A stretch of DNA of 64,000 nt from Candidatus Komeilibacteria bacterium (lineage in GTDB: Bacteria > Patescibacteriota > Patescibacteriia > UBA1558), in contig JBLYPX010000001.1 in the NCBI GenBank assembly GCA_048538235.1, positions 200,013 to 264,012 on the forward strand, in the 5' to 3' direction. The notes under the pieces were generated by a model, which was not told the origin of the DNA, did no database searches, and saw nothing but the letters and a program-made list of their open reading frames with translations. The translations under genes and the position numbers were made by a program. Below are positions 53,522-58,838 of this stretch, one piece after another (positions within the stretch are counted from its first letter, which is position 1; each line of letters opens with the position of its first letter).

Positions 53522-54358
53522 ATGAAACAAGTATATATATTAAAAGCAGATGGTAGTACAAGACAATTTAGTTTTAAAAAATTAGTAAAATCTGTTAATA
53601 GATCTGGCGCATCAAGAGAGCAGGCTAATGCAATTGCTAAAGCTGTGCTAGATAAATTACCACCAAAGGTAACTACTAATCAGATTTATGATTTAATATA
53701 TAAAGAGTTAAGAGGTGCTAAGATGCACCCAACAGCTCAGTTATATTCTTTGCGTAAATCTTTATCTGATCTAAAGCCAGAAGAGTGGGAAAAATATACT
53801 GCTAAACTATTCTCATACTACGGGTATAAAACAGAGTGGAATAAAATAATACCAGGTGCAGCAGTTGAGCATCAGGTGGATGTAATAGCAACCAAAGGTA
53901 ATAAACAATGGTTAATTGAATGTAAGCACCATTATGATTACCATAACGATACAGGTCTTGGTGAGGTGTTAAGAGTACAAGCAAGACTTGAAGATATACA
54001 AGATGGGTTTAAAAAGAAAACAACTAAGTATAATTTTACAGGTGCATGGCTAGTCGTTAACACAAAGTTTTCTGATCATGCTAAAAGATATGCAGCTGCT
54101 AAAAAAATGAATCTTAGCGGTTGGAAATATCCAGATCAATATAGTTTAGAAAGACTTATCCAAGATCAATCTGTATTTCCAGTTACAATTTTAAATGTAG
54201 ATAAAAAGACAAAGAATTTCCTACTACACAATGGTATTTTTACAATTCAAGATATTTTAGAAATGCCACCAAAATTGAGTAGAATATTAGATAATAAGAA
54301 GTTAGACAGATTGGTTAAACAGGTAAATCAACTATTAGAATATTCAGGTAATTTGTAA
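53522..54358 (+). CDS. ATP-cone domain fused to an Mrr-cat (restriction-endonuclease-like PD-(D/E)XK) domain, with a C-terminal HhH-like segment
   Basis: An N-terminal ATP-cone (VYILKADGSTRQFSFKKLVKSV...). The Mrr-cat core is FSYYGY...VDVIATKGNKQWLIECKHH. Confidence 0.6.
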   Translation: MKQVYILKADGSTRQFSFKKLVKSVNRSGASREQANAIAKAVLDKLPPKVTTNQIYDLIYKELRGAKMHPTAQLYSLRKSLSDLKPEEWEKYTAKLFSYYGYKTEWNKIIPGAAVEHQVDVIATKGNKQWLIECKHHYDYHNDTGLGEVLRVQARLEDIQDGFKKKTTKYNFTGAWLVVNTKFSDHAKRYAAAKKMNLSGWKYPDQYSLERLIQDQSVFPVTILNVDKKTKNFLLHNGIFTIQDILEMPPKLSRILDNKKLDRLVKQVNQLLEYSGNL

Positions 54359-54669
54359 TGTTTTTTAGAAAGTTTAAACGGACTATAGAAGATTTTGTTT
54401 GCGAGAATTGTGAACAAGAAGTGAAGGGTAATGGCTATACTAATCATTGTCCTAATTGTTTGTATTCAAAACATGTAGATATATATCCTGGAGATAGAGC
54501 AGAAGAGTGCCAGGGCATGATGAAACCAATAGACTCTGTTATGGAAAAAGGAGATATATATATTGTTCATGAGTGTGTTAAGTGTGGTTTCCAAAAAAGA
54601 AATAAATTTCAAAAGCAAGATAGTCAGGAGGCATTACAAAATATTAATAAAGAAAAAATATATGGTTAA
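54358..54669 (+). CDS. RNHCP-domain zinc-binding protein
   Basis: The GYTNHCPNCLYSKHVD signature and further CxxC pairs. The start overlaps the upstream stop (ATGTAATG). Confidence 0.65.
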   Translation: MFFRKFKRTIEDFVCENCEQEVKGNGYTNHCPNCLYSKHVDIYPGDRAEECQGMMKPIDSVMEKGDIYIVHECVKCGFQKRNKFQKQDSQEALQNINKEKIYG

Positions 54670-55229: not shown

Positions 55230-55499
55230 CTATTTTCCAGATAAATGTCTTGCGCTAACACCGAAACCTCTGAAACCAGAGTAGATGAGTAACATTACTC
55301 CAATTACCATGAGCCAGGGGTGGTCGAATAGCAATTCTAGCGAATCACCGAAATTGCTACCATTATCGTAGCTATTACCGGGGTCGAAATAGAAGGCAAG
55401 AGAGACAAAGCAGGCGAGTATCCACGCGATTGTCAGGGTTGAATACACACTGGTTAAAACCTGGATTGTTTTGGCTAATCTGCTGAAAAAAGTTGTCAT
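55230..55499 (-). CDS. Hypothetical small membrane protein (89 aa)
   Basis: Three TM helices. AAGGAG RBS. A minus-strand promoter (TTGACA, 17 nt spacer, TATACT) lies at about 55540-55570. Confidence 0.5.
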   Translation of the reverse strand: MTTFFSRLAKTIQVLTSVYSTLTIAWILACFVSLAFYFDPGNSYDNGSNFGDSLELLFDHPWLMVIGVMLLIYSGFRGFGVSARHLSGK

Positions 55500-55539
55500 G
55501 TAAGACTCCTTTGTTTTTTTTGTGAAATGTTCAAATCAA

Positions 55540-55570
55540 TAATAACAGTATAGCATATATATACTAATTT
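55540..55570 (-). promoter_or_regulatory. Sigma70-like promoter on the minus strand (TTGACA, 17 nt spacer, TATACT) for the 55230-55499 gene
   Basis: Reverse complement of CAGTATAGCATATATATACTAATTTGTCAA. Confidence 0.5.
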
Positions 55571-55574
55571 GTCA

Positions 55575-55601
55575 ATAGTAAGCAAAACTCCGTAGATTAT
55601 A
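55575..55601. terminator. Hairpin terminator
   Basis: AAAACTCCGTAgattaTACGGAGTTTT. Confidence 0.7.
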
Positions 55602-55608
55602 CGGAGTT

Positions 55609-55839
55609 TTAGTATTGTTTGTGGCAATGTTCGTCTTCCCAGCGTGCATAACGCATTAAAGCGGTAAATGCTAGGAAAGCAACAACAACGCTCAATATCC
55701 ACCAATTTTTGGCGAAATTTAGGGTGTATGTAACCCATTCTATCTCGTATTTACTCTCATGTTGAATAAGAAGAGCAAATAGGACGAAACCAGTGCAAAT
55801 ACTAGCTAGTATTTGTAAAACAGTGTAGATGGTTTTCAT
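55609..55839 (-). CDS. Hypothetical small membrane protein (76 aa)
   Basis: Two TM helices and C-terminal EDEHCHKQY. GC is elevated. Confidence 0.5.
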   Translation of the reverse strand: MKTIYTVLQILASICTGFVLFALLIQHESKYEIEWVTYTLNFAKNWWILSVVVAFLAFTALMRYARWEDEHCHKQY

Positions 55840-55994
55840 CTTAGCCCCCTTATTTTTTTAAGAACTATTACTTAATAATTAGCATGTAATAAGAGTTTTG
55901 TCCATTTTTTGTTTATTGACAATAGTTAGGTGTACATATTATTCTCTTAGTAGAGGTTAATTTGATCTTTGAAAAAAATAGGGAGGAAAAATAA

Positions 55995-56963
55995 ATGAAT
56001 TCAAAATGTGTTTTGGTTATATCCAATAAAGTAGATGTGCATGCAGATAGTGTTATTGATGCACTCTATACTCTAGGCGCAGAAGTTGTTCGGCTTAATA
56101 CAGAAGATTTTAGGCAGGCTAGATATTGTCTAAGTATAGGTAATAATGGACTAGCCTTTGATTTTGAAACGTCAGGTGGTAGGGCAATAGCTCCTAAGGA
56201 TGTTCACAGTGTCTATGTTAGGAGGATTAGTCGAATAAATACTGACGATGTTGAGGATGATTACAAACAGTTGGTTAGTGATGAGAGCGAGGTTTTATTA
56301 AATGCCTTTTGCGAGCTTTTCTCAGAATCTAAATGGCTTGATTTTCCTCAGTATAGAATCGCTGCTTCAAACAAAATCTTGCAGTTGATGGCTGCAAGGG
56401 AAAGTGGGTTTGCAATACCTTCAAGTGTCATAACTAATAATGAAGAATCAGCTAAAAAGTTTTTAGCAGAAGGCGAGTCAATATTCAAGACATTACGATA
56501 TCCAATAGTTGATTTTGGTGAGAGGGGTGTAGGAATGATAAACACCACTCTTATTAGAGATGATTTGATTGACTCAGTTTGTAGTCAGGTTTCCGTGACT
56601 GCAAATTATTTTCAACACTATGTCTCTAAATTGTATGAATTACGCGTTCATGTAATAGGAGGAGATATAGTTGCTGTGAAAATAGAATCTCAAAGTAATG
56701 CAGATTCTAAAATTGATTGGAGGGTTGCTGATTTTGATTATTTAGATTATGAAGAGGTGGTATTGCCAGGTCGTGTGCAAGGAATGATTCTTGAATTTAT
56801 GGCCAGATTGCGTCTCAATTTCGGGGTATTAGATATGATTGTAACCCCTGAAGAGGAATATGTTTTCTTAGAAATCAACCCAAATGGTAATTGGACTTGG
56901 TTGGAGCCGCACCTGAACACTTCTGTGAGCCACAAAATTGCCAGTTGGTTGGTTAAAGAATAG
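55995..56963 (+). CDS. ATP-grasp peptide ligase of the microviridin MdnC/MdnB (graspetide) type
   Basis: ELRVHVIGGDIV and DMIVTPEEEYVFLEINPNGNWTWLE closely resemble MdnC-type ligases. RBS GGGAGG. Promoter TTGACA at 55915. Confidence 0.75.
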   Translation: MNSKCVLVISNKVDVHADSVIDALYTLGAEVVRLNTEDFRQARYCLSIGNNGLAFDFETSGGRAIAPKDVHSVYVRRISRINTDDVEDDYKQLVSDESEVLLNAFCELFSESKWLDFPQYRIAASNKILQLMAARESGFAIPSSVITNNEESAKKFLAEGESIFKTLRYPIVDFGERGVGMINTTLIRDDLIDSVCSQVSVTANYFQHYVSKLYELRVHVIGGDIVAVKIESQSNADSKIDWRVADFDYLDYEEVVLPGRVQGMILEFMARLRLNFGVLDMIVTPEEEYVFLEINPNGNWTWLEPHLNTSVSHKIASWLVKE

Positions 56964-56976
56964 AAAGGAGGTTAGT

Positions 56977-57132
56977 ATGAGACCGGTAGCGGCTCTCTTT
57001 GTTGGTAGACCCATAAAAAAAAGTTTACCCAAATTGAGTTACGACAGCAGTCGGCAACTAAATAGCAACTGGAAGGAGGTTGCTGAAAGAACGCCGACTT
57101 ACCGAAGTGATACAGATGATCATGACGCATGA
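56977..57132 (+). CDS. Candidate graspetide precursor peptide (51 aa) with a C-terminal core TPTYRSDTDDHDA
   Basis: AAAGGAGG lies 5 nt upstream. It is directly downstream of the ATP-grasp gene. The core mirrors the microviridin motif T-x-K-Y-P-S-D-x-E-E. The leader PVAALFV resembles PFFARFL. Confidence 0.6.
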   Translation: MRPVAALFVGRPIKKSLPKLSYDSSRQLNSNWKEVAERTPTYRSDTDDHDA

Positions 57133-57149
57133 TCGTATTGCTCAACAAT

Positions 57150-57185
57150 AAGAGCGCAGTCTAATGTACTGCGCTCTTTTTCTGT
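57150..57185 (+). terminator. Rho-independent terminator closing the ATP-grasp/peptide unit. It overlaps the 3' end of the convergent gene.
   Basis: AAGAGCGCAGTctaatgtACTGCGCTCTT followed by TTTCTG. Confidence 0.7.
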
Positions 57186-58072
57186 AATATCTTTTTTGCC
57201 GGATAACTTGAATTTAACTGATCACTTTCTGCTATAGTGTTTATCAGTTTTATTAGATCTTCATTCAGCAGTAGTAAGTGGTTTGGCAGTAATGACATTA
57301 GTGATAGGGCTTTGTTTCTAACAGCTGAACAGGGTAGGTATAGTGTTTTTGTTGTTAATATATTTAGTATTTTACTTTGCATTTTGGTTTCTAGCTTTTG
57401 CATTATGGGAATTAACATTAACAGAACTATGTTTTTATTGTGCTCGTTCTTTCCATTCAAGACACTAATTATTGTATTTAATAGTTTGTTATTTTTTGTT
57501 GCCCATTGCATTGCATACAAATCGTTGTAAGATATATTGTTTGATTCTAAATAGGGGTTGTAGTTTTTGTCTGTAACAAGCTCATGAATTTTATTTTCTA
57601 TAGATTTCAATTTCTTATCTTGAGAATAGAGTATGTTATTAATAATAGAGTATTGAATATTGGATGAGTTTTTTTCAAATAGCTCTGATGATAGCTTTTT
57701 GTGGCGTTCCACTAAAGTGTTTATTTTAGCACTTTTTGAAAGAGTTTGGTGTTTGTTAGGGTCTTGTGGATCTTTAGATATATCAATGCTTATTACTGTG
57801 AATCCTTTATCTGGGTATAGTGGATTCATTGTTGCTAACACTTGCCAATCATCTTTGTTTAATTGGTCGCGTATGTTATTTAGTAGATTGTCAAATTCTG
57901 TTACAGAGTATTTTTTGCTTATATATTGATCAACAAGCAGAGTATTTTTAAATAGTTTGGGAAGATTTTGTCCGTCATATTCCCATAATTCGATGTTTTT
58001 TAGCAGATATTTCATGTATATATTATAGCACCATTTTTTTATTATTGAATTATCCACAACTTTAGTTGACAT
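57161..58072 (-). CDS. Hypothetical N/K-rich low-complexity protein (303 aa)
   Basis: ORF only. It is divergent from hrcA. Confidence 0.5.
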   Translation of the reverse strand: MSTKVVDNSIIKKWCYNIYMKYLLKNIELWEYDGQNLPKLFKNTLLVDQYISKKYSVTEFDNLLNNIRDQLNKDDWQVLATMNPLYPDKGFTVISIDISKDPQDPNKHQTLSKSAKINTLVERHKKLSSELFEKNSSNIQYSIINNILYSQDKKLKSIENKIHELVTDKNYNPYLESNNISYNDLYAMQWATKNNKLLNTIISVLNGKNEHNKNIVLLMLIPIMQKLETKMQSKILNILTTKTLYLPCSAVRNKALSLMSLLPNHLLLLNEDLIKLINTIAESDQLNSSYPAKKILQKKSAVH

Positions 58073-58093
58073 AAATTATACAGTTGCTACAAT
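58066..58093 (+). promoter_or_regulatory. Sigma70-like promoter (TTGACA, 16 nt spacer, TACAAT) for the hrcA operon
   Basis: Read directly. Confidence 0.6.
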
Positions 58094-58096
58094 ATA

Positions 58097-58123
58097 TTAG
58101 CACTCTTAAGTAGAGAGTGCTAA
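58097..58123 (+). promoter_or_regulatory. CIRCE operator (TTAGCACTC-N9-GAGTGCTAA), the HrcA binding site
   Basis: A perfect match to the CIRCE consensus, 10 nt upstream of the hrcA ATG. Confidence 0.9.
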
Positions 58124-58133
58124 TGAAAGAATT

Positions 58134-58838
58134 ATGGAATTAGACAAGAGAAAGTCACAATTATTCAATACTATTGTAACAGAGTATATTAAAACCGCAG
58201 AACCTGTTGGTTCTAAACCTTTGGCTGGTAAAGGTAAGTTAAAAGTATCATCAGCAACTATTCGTAATGAGATGGCTGAGCTTGAAAAACAAGGACTTGT
58301 TTGTCAGCCACATACTTCAGCTGGTCGTATACCAACAGAAGATGGTTGGAAGTACTATTTAGACAACTTTCTTAAAAAATCTAAATTAAGTAGTGCTGAT
58401 CAAAAAAAGATAGAGAAGTTTATTAGTAAATTAAAAAAATCTGAACTAGAAATATTAATTAAAGAAATGGCTAAAGATATCGCAGATATGGTAGATGGAG
58501 CAGTCGTGGTTGCTCTTTCACCGAATCATGTATATTACACAGGCATTAGTAATATTTTTAAGCAGCCAGAGTTCTTTCATCCAGACATGGTACTTAATAT
58601 GAGCCAGATTATTGATCATTTAGATTCTGTAATGGGAAATATTTTTGACAAAGTTTCAGAACCAACTATTTTGGTTGGTAAAGATAATCCTTTTGGACAT
58701 GACACTGGAGTTGTTTTAACAAAGTATAGTTTGAATAATGAGGTTGGTATATTCGGAATACTTGGTCCAGTTAGAATGGATTACCAGAGGAATTATAATA
58801 TTATTAATTTTTTAACAGATAGTTTTCAAAATGCCTAA
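58134..58838 (+). CDS. hrcA: Heat-inducible transcription repressor HrcA (a short form)
   Basis: The N-terminal wHTH segment SKPLA...SSATIRNEMAELEKQGLVCQPHTSAGRIPT. It is CIRCE-adjacent. Confidence 0.85.
   Translation: MELDKRKSQLFNTIVTEYIKTAEPVGSKPLAGKGKLKVSSATIRNEMAELEKQGLVCQPHTSAGRIPTEDGWKYYLDNFLKKSKLSSADQKKIEKFISKLKKSELEILIKEMAKDIADMVDGAVVVALSPNHVYYTGISNIFKQPEFFHPDMVLNMSQIIDHLDSVMGNIFDKVSEPTILVGKDNPFGHDTGVVLTKYSLNNEVGIFGILGPVRMDYQRNYNIINFLTDSFQNA

Follow-up and report, generated by a model that had tools for sequence, protein, structure and literature searches.

Does an ATP-grasp gene with a short reading frame behind it, found in a genome of a Candidatus Komeilibacteria bacterium, make up a locus for a graspetide, and which of the surrounding genes belong to it? 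The stretch of DNA analysed here, referred to below as the window, spans 64,000 nucleotides (NCBI GenBank assembly GCA_048538235.1, contig JBLYPX010000001.1, positions 200,013 to 264,012 of the forward strand), and positions are those of the window unless another locus is named. Graspetides are a fast-growing class of peptides that are made on ribosomes and modified after translation (RiPPs). An initial annotation, made from the sequence alone, had proposed a horizontally acquired two-gene cluster of microviridin type. We conclude that the best explanation, to which we give a probability of roughly 80%, is a graspetide (omega-ester RiPP) module with three genes, belonging to Candidate Phyla Radiation (CPR) bacteria and composed of a ligase gene, a precursor gene and a convergently transcribed gene for a partner protein with predicted POTRA and ARM/HEAT-like folds (Table 1). 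That the locus is a graspetide locus at all is very probable. Such a locus had been thought unusual for a CPR genome, a view that does not hold: graspetide clusters and precursors have been described in two CPR branches by Makarova et al. 2022 (PMC8939145), and CPR graspetide clusters appear also in Carter et al. 2026 (PMC13097080), so that its presence here is no surprise in itself.

The ligase and its precursor peptide

The product of the 322-aa open reading frame (ORF) carries both motifs, ELRVHVIGGDIV and DMIVTPEEEYVFLEINPNGNWTWLE, that had initially been likened to those of the microviridin ligases MdnC/MdnB. It matches two NCBIfam models of RiPP maturases over the full length, TIGR04185 (MvdC) with an E-value of 1.2e-61 (208.6 bits) and TIGR04187 (SAV_5884 type) with 1.6e-61 (208.2 bits), followed by TIGR04184 (MvdD; 2.1e-45, 155.3 bits) and TIGR04192 (grasp-with-spasm; 9e-33, 113.9 bits), while the match to the RimK family is far weaker (6.6e-10, 38.8 bits). 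A RimK or LysX ligase of primary metabolism, the identity on which the initial annotation had said its proposal would fall, is ruled out by the gap between 38.8 bits and the 208 bits of the maturase models. The pre-ATP-grasp domain of MvdD (Pfam PF21068) was detected with an E-value of 2.4e-9 (37.7 bits, cut-off 27). The best solved relatives in the PDB are all graspetide ligases, with the D-W-R motif aligned, namely MdnB (5IG8; 138 bits, E 4e-39), aMdnB (7M4S; 130 bits, E 1.5e-36), CdnC (7MGV; 111 bits, E 5e-31), MdnC (5IG9; 105 bits, E 4e-29) and PsnB (7DRM; 30 bits, E 4e-6), the names of these entries being taken from PMC10452190. NCBI labels an identical protein 'MvdC/MvdD family ATP grasp protein' and holds an identical copy of the convergent protein as well, both from a Candidatus Komeilibacteria metagenome-assembled genome, which confirms that the genome is of CPR type. 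With 208.6 bits against an equivalog cut-off of 425 bits for TIGR04185, and 155.3 against 475 bits for TIGR04184, the enzyme is a member of the superfamily and not a microviridin orthologue. Its sequence identifies it as a graspetide (RiPP) maturase and not as RimK. Homologues with 39-61% identity come nearly all from CPR metagenome-assembled genomes and metagenomes (Komeilibacteria, Falkowbacteria and Parcubacteria). A scan of the GTDB representative genomes recovered only the already known Parcubacteria contig.

In the mechanical ORF list the precursor frame stands as 64 aa with a TTG start (56938-57132). The sensible start is the ATG at 56977 behind the Shine-Dalgarno sequence AAAGGAGG, with the 51-aa product MRPVAALFVGRPIKKSLPKLSYDSSRQLNSNWKEVAERTPTYRSDTDDHDA; the remark in the initial annotation that this small ORF, with its perfect ribosome-binding site, was missing or mis-started in the ORF track was correct. 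Neither the exact 51-aa product nor the 64-aa product occurs in a collection of 15 billion proteins which does contain both flanking proteins of the same contig, and the peptide is therefore unannotated. About 17 distinct homologous peptides, all of 51-56 aa, were found, nine of them from searches of neighbouring genes and more by profile search; a profile of the nine returned 14 clusters among 5.8 billion proteins, again all of 51-56 aa and one of them annotated Moraniibacteriota.

Among the homologous loci (given L numbers here, and single proteins P numbers), a 51-56-aa ORF lies directly 3' of the ligase wherever downstream sequence exists (L002, L003, L005, L006, L007/L008, L013, L015/L016 and L017). 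The peptide adjoins a homologous ligase (39-61% identity) or the third gene in every readable locus, and the ligase adjoins the peptide in eight of the nine loci with upstream sequence. Conservation of the small ORF beside homologous ligases had been named in advance as a test of the proposal, and the peptide is indeed present in every locus with enough sequence. The Shine-Dalgarno sequence AAAGGAGG is identical in the window, L017 and L003 and reads GGGGAGG in L006, and in L007 and L015 the peptide and ligase genes share a 4-nt start/stop overlap. Between the window and L017, whose ligases are 61% and whose peptides are 57% identical, the peptide codons show 16 synonymous differences (among 29 conserved residues) against 22 non-synonymous ones. 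A chance reading frame is ruled out by the conservation, the Shine-Dalgarno sites and the synonymous changes; judged by these features, the small ORF is a genuine, conserved precursor and a coding sequence. In L002 (1206-1358), the peptide that follows a 48%-identical ligase has the leader and mid-region of the family and a longer, Thr/Ser-rich core (…LTSDTSTSLPHT…) that is cut by the contig end, and may be a core variant.

The convergent third gene

A minimal cluster of only two genes, as initially described, does not fit the comparison of loci. A convergent gene for a protein of ~285-320 aa is conserved together with the pair in ten of the ten loci that have sequence beyond the peptide (the window, L003, L005, L006, L007/8, L012, L013, L015/16, L017 and L019/20), the stop codons of peptide and partner genes lying from -4 to 51 nt apart. 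This convergent arrangement is kept while the flanking genes differ, over at least six genomic contexts (Table 1), which indicates that the three genes travel together. When two loci are compared, the identities of their ligases, peptides and partners rise and fall together (r = 0.79-0.87 over 15 non-independent pairs). The partner family had five members in a word-indexed search of 5.8 billion proteins and 33 when 1.84 billion representatives were searched exhaustively with a profile, and its full-length members with a readable neighbourhood all adjoin this peptide or ligase, except in L009/L011. The partner thus probably belongs functionally to the module, whereas any one specific role that may be assigned to it is doubtful.

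The family profile starts at residue 20 of the partner ORF in the window, which makes Met20 (58015) the likely start. A TATAAT hexamer ends 6 nt before this probable ATG (TGCTATAAT, 58016-58030 on the minus strand; TGGTATAAT in L017, upstream of 1772) and no Shine-Dalgarno sequence was found ahead of it in the Komeilibacteria loci, which together suggest a leaderless partner mRNA in Komeilibacteria. The window protein has no match in Pfam, NCBIfam or PADLOC, and it carries no signal peptide. In the AlphaFold models (predicted local distance difference test score of 78.5 for the whole protein and 84.9 for the N-domain), the N-domain is predicted to take the beta-alpha-alpha-beta-beta fold of POTRA and the C-domain to form a right-handed alpha-solenoid of repeated helical hairpins or triplets, as in ARM/HEAT proteins. 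Weak HEAT_2 Pfam matches in distant family members are consistent with the modelled fold, and the POTRA model of Pfam (PF07244) matches weakly in two of 20 members (best E 5e-4), the window protein not being among them. Foldseek returned no solved structure with the combined POTRA and ARM architecture. The invariant residues (Y3, E9, P65, Y67, N195, R233-N234-K235, Q266 and N268, numbered from Met20) form no recognisable catalytic set; the three Asn are 34-39 residues apart, a spacing that would fit one per solenoid repeat of the model. An enzymatic role was ruled out in view of the missing database matches, the absence of a conserved catalytic triad and a His105 that is not kept in distant members. 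The isoelectric point of the partner is 8.3-9.8, as against 4.8-5.6 for the ligase, and the cores of the peptides are acidic. POTRA and ARM folds are both peptide-binding modules, and we infer that the partner is a peptide-binding protein.

In the three-gene module as we picture it, the 51-aa precursor would be translated from its strong ribosome-binding site right after the ligase gene, and its leader, P-h-h-A-h-F and akin to the PFFARFL helix of microviridins, would be bound by the ATP-grasp ligase. The ligase would activate the side-chain carboxylates of the core Asp residues as acyl phosphates, and these would be captured by Thr hydroxyls to form side-chain-to-side-chain macrolactones. The partner, which is basic, non-enzymatic and presumably cytoplasmic, would bind the acidic peptide by beta-augmentation of its POTRA domain, by the ARM groove or by both, and might either present or stabilise the peptide for the ligase or bind the product, for self-protection or as a receptor.

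SurA, like POTRA, is part of the machinery that handles polypeptides in the cell envelope. The first graspetide ligases that depend on a partner protein were shown by Carter et al. 2026 (PMC13097080), where MirC of the rosaritide system MirABC is described as a SurA-like chaperone domain with an N-domain resembling a RiPP recognition element, needed for ligase activity. This dependence offers a mechanistic precedent for a non-enzymatic graspetide helper. Like MirC, the protein described here is a strictly co-occurring (genomic co-occurrence, 10/10 loci), non-catalytic and chaperone-like companion of ligase and precursor, and the SurA-type MirC and the POTRA partner would both be envelope machinery redeployed in a cytoplasmic RiPP context. 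Unlike the SurA-like/PpiC-like MirC, it is built of predicted POTRA and ARM/HEAT domains with no sequence relationship to MirC; its gene is transcribed towards those of ligase and peptide, and it can be kept where the ligase is missing.

The Komeilibacteria example shown in Carter et al. 2026 (PMC13097080) belongs to group 42, which is associated with DUF6624, and its precursor differs from those of this family. That architecture is resembled by a distant CPR ligase from Vogelbacteria (L018, 3377-6332; 33% identity), which is flanked by a DUF6624 gene and a radical SAM gene and has no POTRA-ARM partner. The 'cluster 23' associated proteins of Makarova et al. 2022 (PMC8939145) are described as lipoprotein-like, with signal peptides, and as lying in the same directon. 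Identity of the partner with these is unsupported, as it has no signal peptide or lipobox, is encoded on the other strand and has motifs that are absent from the accessible supplements. The core strings (DHDA in its context, WTEDSD and TYLKWT) and the partner motifs were not found in the accessible supplementary alignments of PMC8939145, which cover 174 precursor clusters, nor in those supplements of PMC13097080 that were accessible, negatives which are suggestive only.

No paper linking graspetides with POTRA in this sense was found in the searchable literature. As far as that literature shows, three elements are new: a compact precursor family with the core T.T[YW]...T.D.D[AK] at its extreme C-terminus, a strictly co-localised orphan POTRA and ARM/HEAT protein without signal peptide, and signs that the pair of peptide and partner can outlast the ligase. 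The POTRA-ARM protein is a novel, testable element of a CPR-specific graspetide variant and may be its more interesting part. If it does act as a helper, it would be a second partner, unlike the first in structure and found where genomes measure ~1 Mb, and would show that such helpers are recurrent; the three-gene system (~2.1 kb) is experimentally tractable for the study of RiPP roles in obligate episymbionts.

Core motif, incomplete loci and rival readings

The invariant residues of the peptides are a leader Pro, Tyr and Gln in the mid-region and, in the core, T1, T3, T8, D10 and D12, with an aromatic residue at core position 4. The core of the family runs to the end of the peptide as T-x-T-[YW]-x-[KSAT]-[WD]-T-[EDQ]-D-x-D-[AK]-COOH (consensus TxTYxKWTEDxDA), and the leader as P-[FLV]-[GA]-[AVI]-x-[FC] (PFxAxF), which fits also the signature Phhx(1,2)h given in PMC8939145. 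The likeness of PVAALFV in the window to the microviridin PFFARFL, pointed out in the initial annotation, extends to this related family leader. A hairpin turn at residues 6-7 places T3 opposite D10 and T1 opposite D12, and nested T3-D10 and T1-D12 esters are therefore predicted; the conserved connectivity is most likely a beta-hairpin closed by these two bonds. The core in the window is without Lys, so that any links there would be esters, and lineage-specific extra links from Ser6 or Thr8 to Asp7 or Asp9 are possible in this genome.

Plesiocin (group 2) and thuringinin (group 3) have hairpin-type connectivity. With these the module would share Thr...Asp esters laid across a beta-hairpin by one ligase, a mere prediction in the present case, and it differs from them in its single-copy C-terminal core with TxT/DxD spacing and, from plesiocin, in a ligase only distantly related to PsnB. 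With the CPR loci of Makarova et al. 2022 (PMC8939145) it shares a ligase with a short adjacent precursor, Parcubacteria-type genomes, the Phhx(1,2)h leader and minimal clusters with nearby proteins of unknown function. The branch-1 core signature given there, TxxxTx(6-10)Dx(1-4)D, is unlike the TxT....TxDxD at the extreme C-terminus of this family.

Several observations weigh against the three-gene reading or parts of it. For the ring topology, conservation and the register of the hairpin are the only grounds, and the nested-hairpin model leaves the invariant T8 without a function. By similarity the ligase stands a little closer to MdnB/MvdC, which form amides, than to MdnC/MvdD, which form esters, so that its chemistry cannot be told in this way; of the initial label 'MdnC-type, ester-only', the first part fails (138 bits to MdnB, 105 to MdnC) and the second cannot be derived from similarity, though the Lys-free core of the window permits only esters. 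Neither a leader protease nor an exporter recurs with the module across loci. The AlphaFold 2 models of the partner were built on shallow alignments of 5 and 20 sequences, and the partner is always encoded on the opposite strand, hence not co-transcribed with ligase and peptide. Finally, some loci are incomplete. In L009 (1159-2115) and the identical region of L011, an intact partner gene (46% identity) is found, as in the window, beside hrcA, and the following 1.5 kb contain no ligase and no peptide. In L019 (4001-5090) and in L020 (1821-2910) both the peptide (P0086) and the partner are intact, the place of the ligase is taken by a 912-aa P-type cation ATPase, and within 4 kb there is no ligase. 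A partner on its own, and a peptide with partner but without ligase, argue against a purely biosynthetic role of the partner.

These incomplete loci are what gives weight to a different reading, possible though rather unlikely, in which the functional unit is the peptide together with the POTRA-ARM protein, as a ligand-receptor or toxin-immunity-like pair, and the ligase is an accessory that can be lost or act in trans. The ATPase at the ligase's place in L019/L020 fits such a pair, as does the solitary intact partner of L009/L011, which recalls orphan immunity genes; so do the counts, the partner adjoining the peptide in all ten loci and the ligase adjoining it in eight of nine. In the 185-aa ligase homologue P0027 an internal deletion has removed the ATP-grasp core and the DWR motif, so that the last ~50 residues follow directly on the pre-ATP-grasp domain; it apparently lies on the same contig as the intact peptide P0091, to judge only by the equal length of 41,312 bp given for the contigs of both. 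Few as these cases are, they suggest a link between peptide and partner at least as tight as that between peptide and ligase, and a binding role, as receptor or for protection, fits the patterns of decay no worse than that of a helper in biosynthesis alone. The argument, however, rests on one or two independent loci, and in L014 (2006-2968) the three genes decay together: of this L006-type module the first 37 residues of the ligase are left, abutting the partner, the peptide is lost and the partner is frameshifted near residue 50. Moreover, unless a ligase cross-links the peptide, its invariant pattern of Thr and Asp has no easy explanation. A related and equally tentative idea is that the POTRA-ARM protein is a dedicated cytoplasmic receptor or chaperone of the cross-linked peptide, the two forming the functional core of a CPR-specific system. 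Such a role would account for the survival of peptide and partner in loci whose ligase is missing or broken and, if true, would make this the first POTRA domain drawn into RiPP biology; the system might serve, for instance, self-protection against a graspetide or its sensing and delivery in the interaction of episymbiont and host.

Microviridin clusters consist of the MdnA precursor, the ester ligase MdnC/MvdD and the amide ligase MdnB/MvdC, usually with a GNAT acetyltransferase and an ABC transporter. It is improbable that the locus encodes a true microviridin analogue, that is, a serine-protease inhibitor with an all-ester tricycle (T1-D7, S6-D9 and T3-D10) made by an MdnC-like enzyme. When aligned to TxKYPSDWEE, the core TPTYRSDTDDHDA has T1, Y4, S6, D7, D9 and D10 in register, the core of L017 has T1, K6, D7, E9 and D10, the leader PFxAxF resembles PFFARFL, and the microviridin ligases, which belong to the same superfamily and have the same domain layout, are the best solved relatives. 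Common to both groups is also an acidic, Thr/Asp-rich C-terminal core, in which T1, Y4 and E/D9-D10 can be aligned. The residue-for-residue match on which the initial annotation had relied is therefore real for the window core but does not carry over to the family. Ser6 occurs only in the window and Asp7 only in the window and L017; position 6 is Lys, Ala or Thr and position 7 is Trp in most relatives, which excludes links T1-D7 and S6-x9 as the function conserved in the family, and position 9 is Gln in L003/P0080. T8 and D12 are invariant and have no counterpart in microviridins, whose core TxKxPSDx(D/E)(D/E) is not conserved across the relatives (no Lys3, no Pro5, and no conserved PSD). There is one ligase and not two, closer to MdnB than to MdnC and below the equivalog cut-offs of both TIGR04184 and TIGR04185; the GNAT acetyltransferase and the ABC transporter are missing, the host is a CPR bacterium and a POTRA-ARM partner is present. 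The module is not a microviridin, and a microviridin-like tricycle is possible for the two Komeilibacteria peptides only.

That the convergent ~285-aa gene is an unrelated neighbour of a real cluster of two genes would agree with its opposite strand, its background GC content, its position against the hrcA-grpE-hsp20-dnaK heat-shock operon in Komeilibacteria and its occurrence without ligase in L009/L011, but is made highly improbable by the same convergent layout in at least six genomic contexts, by a family of only 33 representatives among 1.84 billion clusters whose full-length members with readable surroundings adjoin peptide or ligase (save L009/L011), and by identities that co-vary with those of the ligase.

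Regulatory signals, composition and genomic neighbourhood

The features of the three-gene module and the genes that flank it in the different loci are listed in Table 1.

Table 1. Features of the graspetide module in the window and flanking genes of the module by locus
Feature	Locus	Position	Strand	Description
Promoter candidate	window	55916..55945	+	sigma-70-like, TTGACA-18-TATTCT; 10/12 positions; ~50 nt upstream of the ligase ATG
Ligase gene	window	55995..56963	+	putative graspetide ATP-grasp macrocyclase, 322 aa; MvdD-type pre-ATP-grasp domain, ATP-grasp core, D-W-R motif
Shine-Dalgarno sequence	window	56964..56971	+	AAAGGAGG, precursor ORF; 5-nt spacer to ATG
Precursor gene	window	56977..57132	+	putative graspetide precursor, 51 aa; leader P-V-A-A-L-F, mid-region Y...Q..N.NW, C-terminal core TPTYRSDTDDHDA
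Terminator	window	57150..57178	+	intrinsic hairpin, 11-bp G+C-rich stem then TTTTCT; between the convergent peptide and partner genes
Partner gene	window	57161..58015	-	conserved partner, ~284 aa from Met20 of a 303-aa ORF reaching 58072; predicted POTRA-fold N-domain, helix/beta-hairpin linker, C-terminal ARM/HEAT-like solenoid
Flanking genes	window, L017			hrcA-grpE-hsp20
Flanking genes	L003			Ham1/NUDIX/PGK
Flanking genes	L006			CHAP/histidine kinase
Flanking genes	L007			dihydroorotase/DHODH
Flanking genes	L015			PolA/DHH
Flanking genes	L019			P-type ATPase/TspO

The terminator has a fold energy of -25.5 kcal/mol (z = -5.6 against shuffled sequences) and overlaps the stop codon and 3' end of the partner gene, in agreement with the earlier description of a strong terminator running into the end of the convergent gene. 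The claim that the unit has its own promoter is less certain: the promoter-like site upstream of the ligase is present, but the region contains 14 such sites against 12.2 expected from shuffled sequence, which is not an enrichment.

The guanine-plus-cytosine (GC) content of the ligase and peptide genes together is 38.4%, against a mean of 32.2% (standard deviation 2.4, equal-sized windows), which places them in the top 0.3%; the peptide gene alone has 44.9%. The GC content at third codon positions is 0.29 in the ligase, compared with ~0.20 in neighbouring housekeeping genes, and the partner gene, with 30.3% GC, is at background level. The elevation above background that had been called clear is thus real but modest. 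The horizontal acquisition derived in part from it is at most ancient, for in a second Komeilibacteria genome (L017) the module stands at the same hrcA-adjacent site with proteins that are only 61% identical in the case of the ligase; a recent acquisition is weakened by this orthologous module at the same site (ligase 61%, peptide 57%). A phage- or plasmid-borne module was not supported either, as IMG/VR yielded no partner homologue and the plasmid matches to the ligase are only generic graspetide ligases with ~30% identity.

The locus has a single ATP-grasp gene; its neighbours are the hrcA operon, an NTPase gene and small membrane ORFs that are not conserved. Directly upstream of the ligase (55230-55839, minus strand) lie two small predicted membrane ORFs of 89 and 76 aa, with 43% and 38% GC, which prolong the GC-rich stretch beyond the ligase-peptide pair and are not conserved in other loci. 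As parts of the module these ORFs (55230-55499 and 55609-55839) were ruled out, since the upstream genes differ in every locus.

On the other side, a perfect CIRCE operator (TTAGCACTC-N9-GAGTGCTAA, 0 mismatches) was found at 58097-58123, just upstream of hrcA (58134-58838). It is preceded by a near-consensus promoter (TTGACA-16-TACAAT, 58066-58093) and followed by the hrcA-grpE-hsp20 operon, and the partner gene diverges from the same ~120-bp intergenic region that holds the hrcA promoter and CIRCE. A heat-shock-related function of the partner by way of hrcA and CIRCE was ruled out as a general explanation, the adjacency being confined to the window, L017 and L009/L011. Downstream in L009/L011 there are an 81-aa ORF and a 245-aa repetitive membrane protein with GLAIGSA repeats. 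Just upstream of the module in the window, the stretch 53522-54669 codes for a 278-aa protein with an unusual set of domains (ATP-cone, Mrr-type restriction endonuclease and, at the C-terminus, AF1548-like) and, behind it, for a 103-aa RNHCP zinc-ribbon protein.

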